A DNA stretch of 63,471 nucleotides, the filler included, from Atractiella rhizophila (taxonomy: Eukaryota): assembly GCA_021432655.1 (NCBI GenBank). It is 52 parts of 52 records of this genome, joined end to end, with 100 filler letters (N's around TTAATTAATTAA, not from the genome) between each part and the next. Parts side by side here need not be neighbours in the genome. Positions count along the whole stretch, not along the records: positions 41,048 to 42,150 come from MU273127.1; 51 more parts are not named here. The stretch is one strand, 5' to 3'. Position 1 is the first letter of the stretch. Each line of letters begins with the position of its first letter. The notes under the pieces were generated by a model. It was not told the origin of the DNA. It ran no database searches and saw nothing but the letters and a program-made list of their open reading frames with translations. Below, in pieces: positions 32,530 through 56,423 of the stretch. The position numbers and the translations under genes are program-made.

Positions 32530-33422
32530 GCAGGCCGTGGTGTTTCCGGTGAAGCGGTTGGAGTTTCGCCTGCAGCCTCCTTCCGTTCCCTCCTCTCCTG
32601 CGCCAACTTAGCCTTCTTCTCCCTCGCCTCCGCCAACACCTCAGCTTTCTTACGATCCTCTTTGTCCTTGCGCCTCTGGTCCCTCAACCGCTGCTGGGTC
32701 CTAACGACACCTTCCACATTCACAAGCCTGTCTGGACGTTTTCGGAAGTAGTAAAGCTTGACTCTCCGCTCTCTCCTAAGAAGCTGCAGCCCATGACTCC
32801 TAGCTCGCCCTTTCGCCGTCGGTCGCAAGACGACGTGGATGTGCTTGATCGTGGGAGAAAGAAGCTCGAAACGTATTTCGACGCCAGCTTTGTCGATTAC
32901 GTTTCGAAGACGGAAGGAAGTCCCCATCCCATCGCCCTTCCTGTAAATTCCCATCAAAACGCCGCTGAAGGTGGTGAACGGTGGCTCTGGATTCTCGGCT
33001 GTCGGAAGCTGCGTCCAGGTGTCGACGGTGAGAACGCTGCCTGGCAGAATTCGCTGAGGATGCCGTCGCGCAAAGTAGGGAACGATTCGTGCCAAGTGAG
33101 GAGGCACGAAAGCGCTTAAACGGCTGTTGACCTCTGAAAGGACGTTGTTTTGGGTCTTGCGGTATTTGGAAAGTGGCACTTTTGGCGCTTCGGCGGGATA
33201 AACGGCGATGTTTCGTGCGAAAGGGTAGTATGGAGGAGGAACGACAGGGGCTTCTGGAGTCTGAACCACTTCTGATACACCTCAACTCCTTAACCTTTGC
33301 AGGGAAAATTAGGCGATCTCACCTGTATTGGAAGCTGCAGCTGAGCTCGAGAATGCTCGCAAGCTTCCCAGAGGTCGTTTCAGTCCATTTCTCGCGCAAC
33401 TCCAAGCTAAGCGGCTCTCCAT
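32530..33422 (-). CDS. IMG1: Mitochondrial ribosomal protein bL19m (Img1-like)
   Basis: Presequence-like first exon (MESRLAW...RAFSSSAAA), one intron, then PGSVLTV...FSGVLMGIYRKG...TSFRLRNVIDKAGVEIRFELLSPTIK...RRVKLYYFR. Confidence 0.9.
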
Positions 33423-41047: not shown

Positions 41048-41586
41048 CAGGTAATCCATTAGGTATTACTGCTAATGTTGAAAGAACACCAATACATCCT
41101 TATTTTACTTTTAAAGATTTAATTACTATTTTTTTATTTTTATTAATTTTTAGTTTTATAATTTTTTATTATCCTAATTTATTAGGACATAGTGATAATT
41201 ATATTCCTGCTAATCCTATAGTGACACCTGCTTCAATTGTACCTGAATGATATTTATTACCTTTTTATTGTATTTTAAGAGCTATTCCTAATAAATTATT
41301 AGGTGTTATTGGTATATTTGCTAGTTTAATTATTTTATTATTTATAGGTTTATTAGATTTATCAATAAAAAGAGGTAATGAATTTAGACCTATTTTTAAA
41401 TTCTCTTTATGTGGTTTATATTCAGTATTTTTTATTTTAATAATATTAGGTGCTAGACATGTTGAACAACCTTATGTTATTTTAGGACAAATTTTTACTT
41501 TATTATATTTTTTATGATTTTTAAATTTACCTATTTTAAGTTTAATTGAAGGTACTATAGAAGATTTTTTATATAAAAATAAATAA
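41048..41586 (+). CDS. cob: Mitochondrial cytochrome b, 3' half (TGA=Trp; ATA apparently Met)
   Basis: GNPLG...HPYFTFKD...[28 protein letters not shown]; open for 178 codons when TGA (41248, 41515) is read as Trp. The contig is very AT-rich. Confidence 0.97.
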
Positions 41587-43453
41587 ATTTAAATTTAATA
41601 TAAAATAAATAGATTCATTGAGGAAAAGAAAAAAAAAAATAGATTTAAATTTTCTATTTATAAATATCTTCAATAGAAATTAAAAAAAATTTTTTTTTTT
41701 TATTTAATAAAAGAAAAGAAATATAATTTAATATAGAATATAAAATAAAATAAAATTATTTTATAACCATAAAATAATTTGTGAAGATTTGTATTACCTT
41801 TATACTATTCATTTATATACCTAAATATGGTTTAAAAAGTAGCCTTGCTAAGGCTAAATTAGATCTCTGACTATATGCTCAAATTATATTCTACTCTATA
41901 ATTACCTACATCTACTATTTTACTTTATAATCATCATATTTTATATATATTCATTTGATATTTTATATATACTATAATTATAAGAATTCCATTTCATAAT
42001 AATTATAACAAATAAGAATACATAATAATTACAAGCTATATATCTTATAAATACTAGATTTTATATGATAGACTGCGTAATATATTATCATTCTTATGTA
42101 TTTTATTAAAATGTATCATAATTCATATTTTATAACAACAACAGAATTTTNNNNNNNNNNNNNNNNNNNNNNNNNNNNNNNNNNNNNNNNNNNNTTAATT
42201 AATTAANNNNNNNNNNNNNNNNNNNNNNNNNNNNNNNNNNNNNNNNNNNNCAAAGAAGTTTCCAGCTAAGACTTACCATAGAGCGACAGCCGACATGTTT
42301 AAAGAATTGGCGGGAGACAGCAAAAAGACAAGTCCGTCGTTTCTTGACGCTCACAAAAAATTTGTGCGGAACCGAAAGTCGCATTTTCGATCACAACTAT
42401 CCGGTGTTTTGGACCAATTTTCTGTCATCATTTTATTTCTGCATCTTTCTTTCTGGGTTACAGTAAGTAGGCAGCCTACTTCACAAATCTCTTAGTGCCC
42501 ATGGTGAAAATGTGTAAGGGAGAAGCTTGAATTTGCCCGTGAGTGCTCTAAGTCTCAGTCAGTTGTCAGTCCCGTTTCAGCTTGGTCCCTCAACTGCGCA
42601 TCAACTCCGACTCATGCGGTCACACTTTGTTCAAGTCCCGACTCAACTCTACTACTTTAACATCTTCGTTCTTCATCCTGCAAACTTGTCATGAGGTCTG
42701 ATTATGAGCGGAATATAGGGAATGAAATCCCATCGCTCTTCCCCTTTGAGCACAACTTATTTTGGAAGCTCGAGTTCGAAGTAAGTGATACTTTTGTGAT
42801 TCGGCATGCATGGCCTAGTCTGAGATAACCAGACCAGACAAGGACAGCTCAACGCTATTTGAGCCTTTATCGTTGTAACCTTGCCTCCTATACACACTTG
42901 GATTCAGACGAAGGAACATCAGGTCCTTGTTGATATGTCATATCTTCAAGATACAGATACATCGTCTTCGAAACGCTTATTTGACTTGGCCCAAAATCAC
43001 CACCTGGTCTCATGTCACAGCTGTTCAAACTGGGTGTGTTGCAGGTACTGTTGACCACCGCACCACTCAGCCAAAACTTTGGCACTACTTTCATCCTTCA
43101 ATCTACTCCTAATCCCAATAGAAGACAGCTGTGCCTTCTATTCCATCGTCACGACTGCGTTTGAGCATTCGTGTCGTCTGGAGTGTACTATGGTTATTTT
43201 ATTGATCCTGTCACTCGGTCATACTGCCCCAATTCGTTCAAGGCAAATGCCGAAGGTTTTAAACAAGCATTCAAGCTCAAGGTCCTGTATCCATTCGAGT
43301 CTTCAGTCATCTGAAGCTTGATCCTGCTTCGACTCAACAGTATTACTTGATGCNNNNNNNNNNNNNNNNNNNNNNNNNNNNNNNNNNNNNNNNNNNNTTA
43401 ATTAATTAANNNNNNNNNNNNNNNNNNNNNNNNNNNNNNNNNNNNNNNNNNNN

Positions 43454-45852: not shown

Positions 45853-46949
45853 TATATATATAATACTAAATATATATCTATTACCTTTTATGCAATATAA
45901 AGAGCAATATCTAATAAAAGATTAGGAGTAATAACGATGTTAGGATCAATATTAATATTAACAATAATATCATATTTACATAATCATATTTTAATTTATC
46001 TAAGTTTAGACTTATATATTTATATTATATTTAAATCATCCTATGATATTTATATTAGGTTTTGTAGTTTTATTAATTATTAGAGGTTTAAATAATGTTG
46101 TTTTAGCTATATTTAAGAGTATTACCAAATTTTATTATATAGTAAACTGTATCAATGATCTTCTTACCATTAATTAAATATTATTATAAAAGATATATTT
46201 AAAATAAAATATAAAATATAAAATATATTATTTATATAGATAATATATTATTATTATTATTATTAATTATTATTATAATTAGTATATATATAAATATAAC
46301 AAAAATAGTAACCAAAGAGATTGTTAAATGGATATAAGCGAATATGGAAAAAGGGGTGGTCTAAATAGCGTTAACGAAATTAATAAGATTATTAATGCGT
46401 TTTTTTACCAAATATATTCTAATATATAACCCTAAAAGAAATTCAAGTAAACAAATTTTTTTACTTCAATTTATTAAATAATAAAAATTAAAAAAATTTA
46501 TTATTTATTAAATAATATTTGTTTAATTACATTCTGAACCAAAACAGCGTAGTAAGAATAGGAATAAAAATCAAAAGAGATTTCAAAAGTAGTGACGAAC
46601 GAAATTGAAATTAAGCAAAAATATTAATTTAAATTATAATATTCATTTAACTATTATTTTATTTATAATAAAATGAATATAAATTATTAATATAACATAC
46701 TTTATCTTATATATTTATAAATATAAATATAAATATAAATATATAAGTAATAAAAAATTAATTTTTTATGAATTATTAAAAAAAAAAATAAAACTTTTTA
46801 AGAAAGATATATTCTTATTATTTATTATAAATTAAGGTATTATGCCTATATTATTTATAATAGATCTATTCTAATAAAATAGAATATATAATATCTAATA
46901 TTATATAATAGAGATAAGAATGATTTAAACCATAGAAGGAATGTTATAT
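45853..46949. other. Extremely AT-rich mitochondrial-type contig
   Basis: Composition resembles 41048-42150 and contrasts with the nuclear contigs. Contains a cob remnant. Confidence 0.8.
45875..46140 (+). pseudogene. cob: Decayed second cytochrome b fragment
   Basis: YLLPF-(Y)AI*RAISNKRLGVITMLGSILILTIISYLH...FILGFVVLLII, with frameshifts and a stop. Confidence 0.75.
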
Positions 46950-47049: not shown

Positions 47050-48142
47050 GTTCCTATTCCACTGAAGTGGGTGTTAAGCAAGAAGAGGAAGTTGGGGGGC
47101 GAATTTCTGAAATATAAGGCGCGACTAGTTGCCCTTGGAAATAAACAGGTGGAGGGTCGAGATTTTACGGAAACCTACGCTCCGACGGTACGCATGTCCA
47201 CAATCAGAGTTGTCCTTGCGCTTGCTGCCATAAACGGATGGACCCTGGGACAGTTTGACGTTGGAAATGCATTCTTACATGGAGAATTGGAGGAAGAGAT
47301 ATATGTCCAGGAGCCACCGGGCCTTGTTGATCCCGAACATCCTGACTAGGTTTACCGAGTAAAGAAGAGTCTCTACGGGTTGCGACAGGCGGGGAAGAGT
47401 TGGAACGAAGAATACAGCATGATGATGAAGGAGGATGAATTCGTGAAATCACAGGCTGATCACGGAATGTATGTTAGACAGGATCATAGGGGACTGTTAA
47501 TAGTACTCTTACACGTGGATGATGGACTCGTTGCATCGACGTCGACGGATTTGCGAGACAGTTTGATGAAGAAAATGGTGGCGGTCTTCAAGAGAGTTAC
47601 ACACGGCGAAGTTGGAGAGTACCTTGGGATGCGGATTACCCAGGATCGCGAGAATCGGCATATAACGATGGATCAGATCTACTACATCGGGAGATGTATT
47701 GCGAAATACGGTTTCAGGACCATTCTGTTGTCAGCACACCTTGCGATCCAAAGGACAAGTTGACAAACGATATGTCACCGAAGACTGAACGGGAGAAGGC
47801 GGAAATGGGAGGGATACCATTCTCGGAGGCAGTTGGTGCGTTGATGTATCTGGCAGTCAACACGCGGCCAGACATTCTATATGCTGTAAATCGAGTGAGT
47901 AGGTATATGATAAACCCGGGGATGGGACATTGGAAGGCAGTAACGAGGATTTACCGATATTTGAAAGGGACGACCGGAAGGGTTTTGAGATGGGATGGGA
48001 AGGGTACATCGACTGAACTGGTGGGCTGGTGCGATGCGGATCATACGGCGGACATCGACAGTAGACGGTCGATATCTGGTTGCCATTTCAATCTGGCGGG
48101 CGGGATGGTCTCTTGTTTTTCGACTGCTCAGAAATCGGTAGC
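47050..48142 (+). mobile_element. Ty1/copia LTR retrotransposon pol (RT to start of RNase H), disrupted
   Basis: KYKARLVALG...ETYAP...QFDVGNAFLHG...KSLYGLRQAG...LHVDDGL...TRPDI...GWCDAD...RRSISG. TAG at 47347 replaces Trp; frameshift near 47710. Confidence 0.97.
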
Positions 48143-51804: not shown

Positions 51805-52885
51805 CAATGTTGTTCCTGCCGAGAATGTCACCCAAGGACTCATCCTGAGGATTAAAGGTCACAGAATGCCGATCAGGAAGGTGTACTGCCAAGCGAATAG
51901 CCACAGGAAAATGCTGGTGTAAAGTAAAGTGGACAATCCGGTAACAGGCTGTAAAATTGTATCAGATAAGCCTAACATCATCTCAGAGTAGTTCTAAACA
52001 CTTACCTTCAGAAGATCCAATGAATCTAGCATCCAAGTCCTCTTGAATCTCATCCACTACCCTAACATCACCTTGGGCACTATGAAGGACAGCTTGTGCC
52101 CGATCATTTCCTTTGTAGATGTATTTGAACAGGTATTTGACTGATTTGATGGAGATGTAGAGTTCCACATTGATATGAGCTGTAAACCGACAAAGGACAT
52201 AAGCATTAAATGGCAGGACCCATCGATTGTCGTAAATAAATCCATTCCACAATTTCTGAAATGTATGTCCATTGTTACGGCAACGATAGGTGGGATAGCC
52301 ATCCTCATTGATGCCTGTTTCGTCTACGAATGGCTTCGGAAACCCTTTGCCACAGATCTTTCTTCTATGATTTTAGGATCATCTATCATGCATGCAGCAT
52401 CTAGGTTGATATCTCCACAGGGTCCATGAAGCATATCATTGCAGACAATGTCAAACAATTCAGGGTCTGTATCCTTGTCAGGCAATTCGGCAGACACTAT
52501 GCGGTCGATCGCCTCAACATCCGTGATGGTATCTTCAGGATGTGAGCATGGGGAGGCCACATTTCTGAAATTCAATCACCCAGACGAAGCTGACCAACGG
52601 TCCAAAGATTGAGTTATCCTTGATGTCCTGCATGTAAGCCTTCACCTTTGCATTGAAAACTCTAGAGACCAAGTCTGGTCGATCAGCAGCTGTTTGCCCA
52701 GGAAGTAGAGCTTCTGTAATTTCTGGCCACCGTGGATTGCAAGTGAAAGTTGTGAAGATAGGAGGTGAACCTTGGTTCCCAACAATCGCCATAGCATCTT
52801 GGAATTGCTGGTTCATCTGGCGGGGACTTCCTGTGTGTGATGATGGTAGAATGGTCCGCTTCCCAACATCTGCGGCATCTCGACC
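51805..52885 (-). mobile_element. Helitron RepHel, Rep (HUH/Y2) region, degenerate
   Basis: ILPSSHTGSPRQM...QDAMA...TFTCNPRWPEI...DRPDLVSRVF...EFQKCGLP...HGPCG...DNRWV.PFN...HINVE...KYLFKYIYKG. Frameshifts; intron 52005-51949. Confidence 0.95.
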
Positions 52886-55345: not shown

Positions 55346-56423
55346 AGCGTGTCAATGAGCTCAACTCAAATTATCTTCCACTTCGTTTTCCTCTTCTGTT
55401 TCCATATGGGGACCAAGGATGGCATCCGCAGATTCCGTATTGAGACCTGCCTGCAGATCTTCCTCCACGAGCGATAGCACTTCAATGATGATGGCATACA
55501 AGTTGGTAATTCTGGGGTTCGACAATGTGTCAGCCAAATAGAGTTCTATTCTTACATGTGGCATCAACAAAATGATATATTCTCACTCCCTCTCTACAGT
55601 GGTCGGCTACTGCAAGAATTGGTAGTCGATGCTTATGCTCAAAGTGAGGCGAATCGACTCCGCTATCTGCGGTTCAATCAGTCTATTCTTCGAGCCGAGG
55701 TGTATCAAGGTCTTACGGATGCCCTCGCAGAAGGCTATTCTTTAGAAGATATCGGGAGGCGGACTATATTACCATCAAGTTTCACTAGCGGTCCATGTTC
55801 AATGAATCAGCTGTTCCAGGATGCAATGAGTATAATTGGTGCCAATGGACCTCCAATATCTTTACAACCTTCACTTGCAACCCACACTGGGCAGAGATCA
55901 CGGAAGCCCTCCTACCAGGCCAAAAACCAGAGGATCGACCAGATTTGGTTTCAAGGGTTTCAAGGGTTTTTCGACTGAAGGCTCTGGAGTACATCAAGGA
56001 TTTAGTGGTACGACAGATCTTTGGAAGGGTTATTGGTATGTCTGGGTCATTGAATTTCAGAAGAGAGGTCTACCACATACCCACATCCTGTTGATTCTTC
56101 ATCCTGAAGATCTTATCAGGGATGAGGCAGCCATTGAAATAGTCACCAAGCATATGCTACATGGCCCATGTGGTGAACATAATCCAGATACACCTTGCAT
56201 GGTCAATGGGAAGTGTGGCAAAGGGTATCCCAAGCCTTTTGTTGAGGAAACGAGAATCAACGATAATGGCTACCCTACCTATCGGCAGCGTAACGACCGC
56301 CGGGTTTTTCGCAAGATGATATGGGGATAAGAGTTTATATATGATAATCGATGGGTAGTGCCTTTTAATGCTTGGGTCCTGAGGAAGTTTCTGGCTCATA
56401 TCAACACTGAGATCTGTATCTCA
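55346..56423 (+). mobile_element. Helitron RepHel, Rep region, degenerate (related to 51805-52885)
   Basis: NRLRYLRFNQSILRAEVYQGL.DA...ILPSSF...EFQKRGLPHTHILL...HGPCG...C.KGYPK...GYPTYR...DNRWVVPFN. Frameshifts and a 9-bp duplication (VSRVSRVF). Confidence 0.95.

Follow-up and report, generated by a model that had tools for sequence, protein, structure and literature searches.

In a window of 63,471 bases from the Atractiella rhizophila assembly (the window being the whole stretch of DNA that was analysed), one very AT-rich contig carries the 3′ part of a mitochondrial cob (cytochrome b) gene in which the codon ATA (AUA in RNA) appears to specify methionine (Met) instead of isoleucine (Ile). 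Most probably, this contig is true high-copy mitochondrial DNA (mtDNA) of an Atractiella-like fungus, whose code reads ATA as Met, TGA as tryptophan (Trp), and AGA as arginine (Arg). The reassignment had been proposed in a first-pass annotation made from the sequence alone, and it is supported here by a codon likelihood, by the retention of conserved Met columns, by the Ile and Met composition of the protein, and by the score against a protein family model, all of which favour Met. The contig lies at positions 41048..42150 (no strand assigned), has a guanine-plus-cytosine (G+C) content of 0.179, and is bounded by spacers at both ends.

ATA codons at conserved positions of cytochrome b

The cob reading frame occupies positions 41050..41586 on the plus strand, where 178 sense codons are followed by a TAA stop codon (41584-41586). 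It matches the C-terminal domain of cytochrome b in Pfam (PF00032, E 8e-33) at 113-119 bits, for which the gathering cut-off is 20.7, and its translation matches thousands of cytochrome b proteins with a best identity of 64%. The codon tally reproduced the counts of the first-pass annotation, that is, no ATG, nine ATA, and 18 ATT codons, with neither CTN nor CGN codons among the 178; in addition, it gave no ATC, two TGA, no TGG, and five AGA codons. A G or C at the third position is found in only two of the 178, and T-ending codons are preferred over A-ending ones by approximately 4:1. The translation under the mould mitochondrial code (table 4, in which ATA is Ile) was aligned with 116 full-length homologues, which are the 120 best matches minus four fused or duplicated proteins (P0003, P0071, P0116, and P0122). 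All counts of homologues given below for single columns refer to this alignment. The TGA codon in the PEWY motif (41248..41250, plus strand) falls at a column with Trp in 116 of 116 homologues, and the second TGA codon (41515-41517, plus strand) at one with Trp in 106. All five AGA codons are found at Arg columns, and the column likelihood reads AGA as Arg. The earlier assignments of TGA to Trp and of AGA to Arg are therefore borne out.

The five ATA codons that had been singled out as standing at Met sites do fall at Met-dominant columns. All on the plus strand, they are the codon of TP-ATA-HPYF (41092..41094), with Met in 60 and phenylalanine (Phe) in 54 of the 116 homologues; that of ANP-ATA (41218..41220), a conserved column with Met in 112; that of GVIG-ATA-F (41314..41316), also a conserved column, with Met in 114; that of LLF-ATA (41344..41346), with Met in 80 and leucine (Leu) in 33; and the first of two neighbouring ATA codons (41440..41445), with Met in 101. 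Ile is present at these five columns in 2-4 of the homologues. The remaining four ATA codons, on the same strand, are located at a variable hydrophobic column (41158..41160; 52 Phe, 46 Ile, 8 Met, and 6 Leu), at a column of Trp, tyrosine, and Phe (41443, the second codon of the neighbouring pair), at a Leu-dominant column (41557..41559; 107 Leu and 7 Ile), and at an Arg column (41365..41367; Arg in 115 of 116), which is uninformative on the choice between Met and Ile. Met-dominant columns thus hold five of the nine ATA codons, versus none of the 18 ATT codons (Fisher p ~0.0016). Seven columns have Met in at least 50% of the homologues, and the codons of the window at these columns are five ATA, one TTT, and one GAA. 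All five columns with Ile in at least 95% of the homologues carry ATT and none carries ATA; likewise, the conserved Ile sites named in the first-pass annotation, YIP, SIV, ILR, AIP, and GVI (41203, 41236, 41272, 41284, and 41308, respectively), are encoded by ATT in every case.

A Codetta-style likelihood calculated over the nine ATA columns gave a posterior of 0.9997 for ATA as Met, with Leu, Ile, and Phe each at or below 2e-4 and a likelihood ratio of Met over Ile of ~10^4. Codons other than ATA that were seen at least three times are all read as in table 4, AGA as Arg included. Residue retention points in the same direction. When the fragment is translated with table 4, non-Met residues are kept at 83 of the 97 columns conserved in at least 85% of the homologues, whereas Met is kept at none of four (p 7.5e-4); at a threshold of 50%, non-Met residues are kept at 106 of 147 columns (72%) and Met at none of seven (p 2e-4). 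Reading ATA as Met restores five of the seven Met columns (71%), which equals the retention rate of the other residues. The composition of the table-4 translation, 27 Ile and no Met, is beyond the range of the 116 homologues for both residues (12-24 Ile and 3-11 Met), whereas with ATA as Met the 18 Ile and nine Met both lie within it. Moreover, the Pfam PF00032 score is 5.6 bits higher with ATA as Met (118.8 bits) than with ATA as Ile (113.2 bits).

As controls, 80 environmental cob loci from among the matches listed were used, many of them with 24-28% G+C. At least two ATG codons occur in the 178-codon span in 79 of the 80, and the AT-rich controls (G+C 0.24-0.28) retain ATG at Met-dominant columns. 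Summed over the 80 controls, the seven Met-dominant positions hold seven ATA codons and five ATT or ATC codons, with a maximum of two ATA codons per locus versus five in the window. ATA is avoided at conserved Ile columns by some controls too (L007 and L018, which use table 4), so that the absence of ATA from such columns is a weak feature when taken alone.

The upstream part of the same gene is represented by P0133, a JGI protein of 262 residues that matches at 100% identity along a stretch of 128 residues and extends the gene by 134 residues. At the level of protein sequence only, P0133 has two consecutive Ile residues in LILIIATAF where the homologues have two Met (112 and 104 of 116, respectively), and Ile at a further column with Met in 54 of 116. 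Its upstream part thus has Ile at these three Met-majority columns, and it has Met at the near-universal GQM. This last residue implies that ATG is still present in cob; hence the earlier count of no ATG holds for the 178-codon fragment and does not extend to the whole gene. P0133 ends in a frameshift that is explicable by one extra T in a run of T (window ~41425-41432). The window version of this run is supported by contigs of the DNA runs X2 and X4 and of the RNA library X5; either a homopolymer error or strain variation accounts for the discrepancy.

Origin of the contig and alternative explanations

The cob sequence is found in RNA libraries as well as in DNA. A contig of 358 nucleotides from a soil metatranscriptome (X11, covering 41048-41405) and another of 323 nucleotides (X5, covering 41239-41561), whose root RNA library belongs to a different study, each show no difference from the DNA, and jointly they cover all nine ATA codons, including that at 41092..41094, where X11 is identical, and that at 41314..41316, where the contigs of the two studies show no difference. 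The DNA contigs of X2 and X4 agree with the window, so that the identical sequence is present in four independent runs. The depth over the cob contig is 686-1091 in DNA run X2, the whole of which amounts to 45.9 million letters. Such a depth is beyond the reach of any nuclear locus, and we take this to mean that the contig is not a nuclear copy. The first-pass annotation had named in advance the editing of transcripts and a nuclear copy as grounds for abandoning the reassignment; the depth excludes the latter, and no editing of ATA to AUG was seen in the RNA-library contigs X11 and X5, which rare editing could escape. The sequence words of the contig occur in soil, root, and rhizosphere sequencing runs, which fits the root-endophyte ecology given in the literature. 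Small word shares in many further soil runs were not used as evidence.

The nuclear contigs of the window point to Atractiella. The open frame at 32532..33281 (minus strand; Pfam PF01245), which encodes mitochondrial ribosomal protein L19, shares 244 of 248 residues (98%) with a protein from Atractiella rhizophila, with runner-up matches at no more than 44%; this confirms a basidiomycete host, as the lineage of Atractiella is Basidiomycota, Pucciniomycotina, Atractiellomycetes. That the mitochondrial and the nuclear contigs derive from the same fungus is inferred from their co-assembly and from ecology. Against the resident cob, the best database proteins, which are basidiomycete-like, score up to 241 bits, whereas the best PDB COB chains, presumably those of Saccharomyces, Yarrowia, and Candida, reach 187-198 bits. 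Organism names are borne by 14 of the 120 matches listed, and these fall in Parajaminaea, Jaminaea, Ustilaginaceae, Macalpinomyces, Puccinia, Cantharellus, Cyathus, Phallus, Elmerina, Cutaneotrichosporon, and Pascua; all 14 are presumably Basidiomycota taxa. The difference in bits and the use of AGA for Arg, which excludes most animal codes, thus speak against contamination by an organism whose code is known to have AUA as Met. The earlier view that the contig is the host's own basidiomycete mtDNA is supported by the L19 identity and the high depth, whereas cob alone gives no proof of basidiomycete origin. Searches for DNA of the same organism found nothing above 62% identity among the JGI metagenome matches listed (the P0133 contig is not among them), a single match at 47% among viral contigs, and only alphaproteobacteria among prokaryote genomes.

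Several observations weigh against reading ATA as Met, and most of them could be accommodated if ATA were still Ile and if extreme AT pressure combined with relaxed selection in a fast-evolving mtDNA had truly replaced most conserved Met residues by Ile through a change of ATG to ATA. The basis of the analysis is one 178-codon cob fragment with nine ATA codons, of which five are informative. The four ATA codons outside Met columns, set against the 18 ATT codons, accord with the ~4:1 excess of codons ending in T over those ending in A and, taken alone, also fit ATA as Ile. In a cob tree of 31 rows, the window gene is on a very long branch (0.94 versus a median of 0.12), which indicates that conserved sites do change in this lineage, and two Met columns have turned into Phe and glutamate. 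AT pressure favours the single step from ATG to ATA, so a true replacement of Met by Ile would give ATA too; the scarcity of codons ending in G or C and the few homologues with Ile at the Met-dominant columns are in line with such a replacement. In addition, the ATG retained at GQM is compatible with selection acting on the most important Met residues only. Nevertheless, we regard a true exchange of the residues as unlikely, because the loss is specific to Met at a time when 72% of the other columns are kept, because both the absence of Met and the excess of Ile lie beyond what the 116 homologues show, because no ATA stands at the five most conserved Ile columns, and because AT-rich controls keep ATG at Met columns. 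Furthermore, the usual substitute at a Met column in 228 reference rows is Leu (102) and not Ile (24), and the COB proteins of rust fungi described below keep 95-96% of the other columns yet lose Met, so that relaxed selection fails as an explanation there.

Other points concern the origin of the sequence. By itself, cob does not place the contig within fungi, as identity to a Rhizopus protein is 60% and the gene falls, in the tree, within a fungal polytomy that is not resolved. X5 and X11 are contigs and not reads, in which rare variants would be hidden, and RNA libraries may hold DNA. A yeast or animal contaminant, a decaying nuclear copy, or transcripts edited to AUG might be considered, and the fragmented assembly, the presence of a second, different cob-like piece, and several features that also fit the yeast mitochondrial code (table 3), namely the absence of CTN and CGN codons, extreme AT richness, and TGA as Trp, could be cited in favour of an artefact or foreign DNA. 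Such an origin is nonetheless very improbable in view of the higher scores of basidiomycete-like COB proteins over the PDB chains, the named matches, the AGA codons at Arg columns, the intact frame with its conserved motifs, the depth, the four concordant runs that include RNA libraries, and the Atractiella identity of the nuclear contigs. It could also be supposed that ATA is in transition, its reading being ambiguous between Met and Ile, or its decoding poor, with a transfer RNA (tRNA) for Met, tRNA-Met(CAU), and a remnant tRNA-Ile both acting on it, so that either residue would be inserted. Codon reassignment by way of ambiguous intermediates is an established model, and the distribution of ATA over five Met columns and four columns that are usually Ile, Leu, or Phe could be read in this way. 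However, these four columns are variable hydrophobic or non-conserved ones at which Met would be acceptable, and the likelihood comes down strongly on the side of Met as the only meaning, which leaves the ambiguous state with a slender chance. A single reading of ATA as Met accordingly remains the preferred interpretation.

Two further results belong to the points against this interpretation. No tRNA genes were found in either AT-rich contig with ARAGORN in its standard mode or with Rfam; tRNA matches obtained only in the permissive metazoan-mitochondrial mode of ARAGORN were treated as chance matches in AT-rich DNA. Moreover, a decayed cob-like relic of ~96 nucleotides on the second AT-rich contig (45874..45969, plus strand) uses ATA at Ile columns and carries ATG at a column of Met. 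This relic has a 1-nucleotide deletion and an in-frame TAA, scores 20 bits in Pfam, below the cut-off, and shows altered invariant residues, A-ending codons, and no PEWY upstream. Its nucleotide identity is 84% to the cob of another fungus (L049) versus 77% to the resident cob. It is not a working gene, is perhaps foreign in origin, and is possibly the leftover of a mobile element; it was therefore rejected as counter-evidence.

Composition of the window

The window consists of ~52 separate contigs of 1.07-1.18 kb each, ordered by size, with the spacer N44-TTAATTAATTAA-N44 between them. It is not a single molecule, and the adjacency of stretches carries no linkage information. The G+C content is 43-54% in 50 of the contigs, and the other two are very AT-rich, namely the cob contig and a second mitochondrial contig (45853..46949, no strand assigned; G+C 0.147). 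Besides the relic, the latter contains a piece of the mitochondrial large-subunit (LSU) ribosomal RNA gene (46529..46609, plus strand), which matches positions 164-244 of the Rfam LSU model at 48 bits (E 1e-11), suggesting that this contig bears the 5′ part of rnl. The nuclear contigs hold eukaryotic genes, including those for Helitron and Copia reverse transcriptase sequences, malic enzyme, BAG, YL1, and the mitochondrial L19 mentioned above. Window positions 52538-52885, 55478-56327, and 47350-47760 contain Helitron helicase-like domains, in three open frames spread over two contigs, together with a reverse transcriptase of Copia type, so that transposons are a frequent component of the small contigs in this assembly.

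Related codes, rust fungi, and implications

In other codes with AUA as Met, the normal AUA reader tRNA-Ile(CAU) is lost and tRNA-Met(CAU) reads AUA. By analogy, the lysidine-type tRNA-Ile(CAU) would have been lost in the present lineage, and the elongator tRNA-Met(CAU) would have gained the reading of AUA besides AUG. Extreme AT pressure may then have swapped most ATG codons for synonymous ATA, with ATG persisting at a few sites such as GQM. Among the control loci, which are partial, four users of ATA with many tRNA genes in view (L013, L030, L050, and L053) have three tRNA(CAT) genes. Twelve other environmental fungal loci with 34-46% G+C contain no ATA in the 178-codon span (L002, L003, L005, L006, L020, L026, L028, L032, L047, L051, L052, and L055); of these, L003 has two tRNA(CAT) genes among 17 tRNA genes and L032 one among 13. 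At these loci, ATA may be unassigned, which would be consistent with a stage at which the codon is gone before its capture by Met.

The code proposed here resembles several known ones. With the yeast mitochondrial code (table 3) it shares AUA as Met, UGA as Trp, AGA as Arg, a very AT-rich fungal mtDNA, and the lack of CGN; it differs in its basidiomycete host, which is outside Saccharomycetales, and the cob fragment is without CTN codons that could bear on CUN as threonine. The lower score against the PDB chains, presumably those of yeasts, together with the basidiomycete host, argues for an origin separate from that of yeasts. The animal mitochondrial codes (tables 2, 5, and their relatives) also combine AUA as Met with UGA as Trp, and ATA is preferred over ATG in them when the DNA is AT-rich, but their AGA specifies serine, glycine, or stop, whereas here all five AGA codons stand at Arg columns of a fungal protein. 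In two papers on green-algal organelles (PMC6551751 and PMC6486808), a change of AUA from Ile to Met is described that was detected from conserved columns; it is likewise an independent organellar reassignment, in another kingdom. The mould code, which is the one applied to basidiomycete mtDNA, agrees in TGA as Trp (two of two), AGA as Arg, and the other codons tested, and differs in that ATA does not behave as Ile here. A full-text literature search, with subscription journals and the supplements of PMC7951889 outside its range, retrieved no report of AUA as Met in Basidiomycota, Pucciniomycotina, or Atractiella. Changes of this kind are well known, and Atractiella would be a new and independent case.

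A similar signature is seen in rust fungi. COB proteins of six named rusts (P0038, P0254, P0257, P0258, P0260, and P0261) were taken from the cluster members of a small group of homologues in which Ile at Met columns recurs and which includes Puccinia horiana. They keep 222-228 of 233-238 conserved non-Met columns, whereas only 3-5 of 10 conserved Met columns are kept and Ile stands at 4-6 (one-sided Fisher 2e-4 to 3e-7). A loss confined to Met occurs at p<0.01 in just two of 114 reference rows. The near-universal GQM is found in Puccinia and nearly all other fungi, whereas Phakopsora and Austropuccinia have GQI, and the Phakopsora protein contains six Met in total versus 9-23 in the reference rows. 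Columns in which only Met and Ile occur make up seven of the 60 variable columns among the six rusts and are the second commonest type. Met at Ile-dominant columns is seen in none of most rows of the group and once in several rust rows, the latter depending on the alignment. Two further proteins that are otherwise near the consensus behave in the same manner. P0144, a JGI protein from a 42-kb contig, has no Met in 264 residues and has Ile at four of the five covered conserved Met columns, or at seven of seven under a looser test; P0112, a Logan protein, has Ile at six of 10 conserved Met columns, including GQI. Judged from their sequences, both probably represent further lineages with AUA as Met that were mistranslated with table 4.

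The rust signature suggests that the use of AUA as Met may predate Atractiella. With regard to tRNAs, Table 5 of PMC7951889 gives only two tRNA(CAT) per rust mtDNA, with one tRNA-Ile(GAT) beside them in each of five of the six, and lists no tRNA-Ile for P. graminis. As for relationships, PMC13347111 includes one phylogenomic analysis in which Atractiellomycetes are sister to Pucciniomycetes and another that places them elsewhere; the same source acknowledges a colleague for genome data of Atractiella that had not been published. On these grounds, we lean slightly towards the view that table 4 with AUA as Met would be an old, unrecognised code variant common to Atractiellomycetes and Pucciniales. 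The first-pass annotation had called the change an independent reassignment in this lineage; it does appear separate from the changes in yeasts and animals, and it is probably not private to Atractiella, since the rust COB proteins share its signature.

Sense-codon reassignments are rare. According to PMC10701893, AUA and CUN reassignments typically define Saccharomycetales, which provide the only fungal case of AUA as Met, and table 4 applies to the remaining fungi. A second origin in fungi, arisen independently in an extremely AT-rich basidiomycete mtDNA, would be a natural replicate in which AT pressure and a lost tRNA-Ile(CAU) could be tested as drivers of reassignment. For Atractiella itself, translation of mitochondrial proteins with table 4 would be wrong at ~5% of residues, as estimated from nine of 178 in the cob fragment. 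If the same holds true for rusts, all rust mitochondrial proteins that were deposited as table-4 translations, cytochrome b as a fungicide target among them, show Ile in place of Met, and the deposited sequences of major crop pathogens, models of cytochrome b, and mitochondrial phylogenies would be affected.

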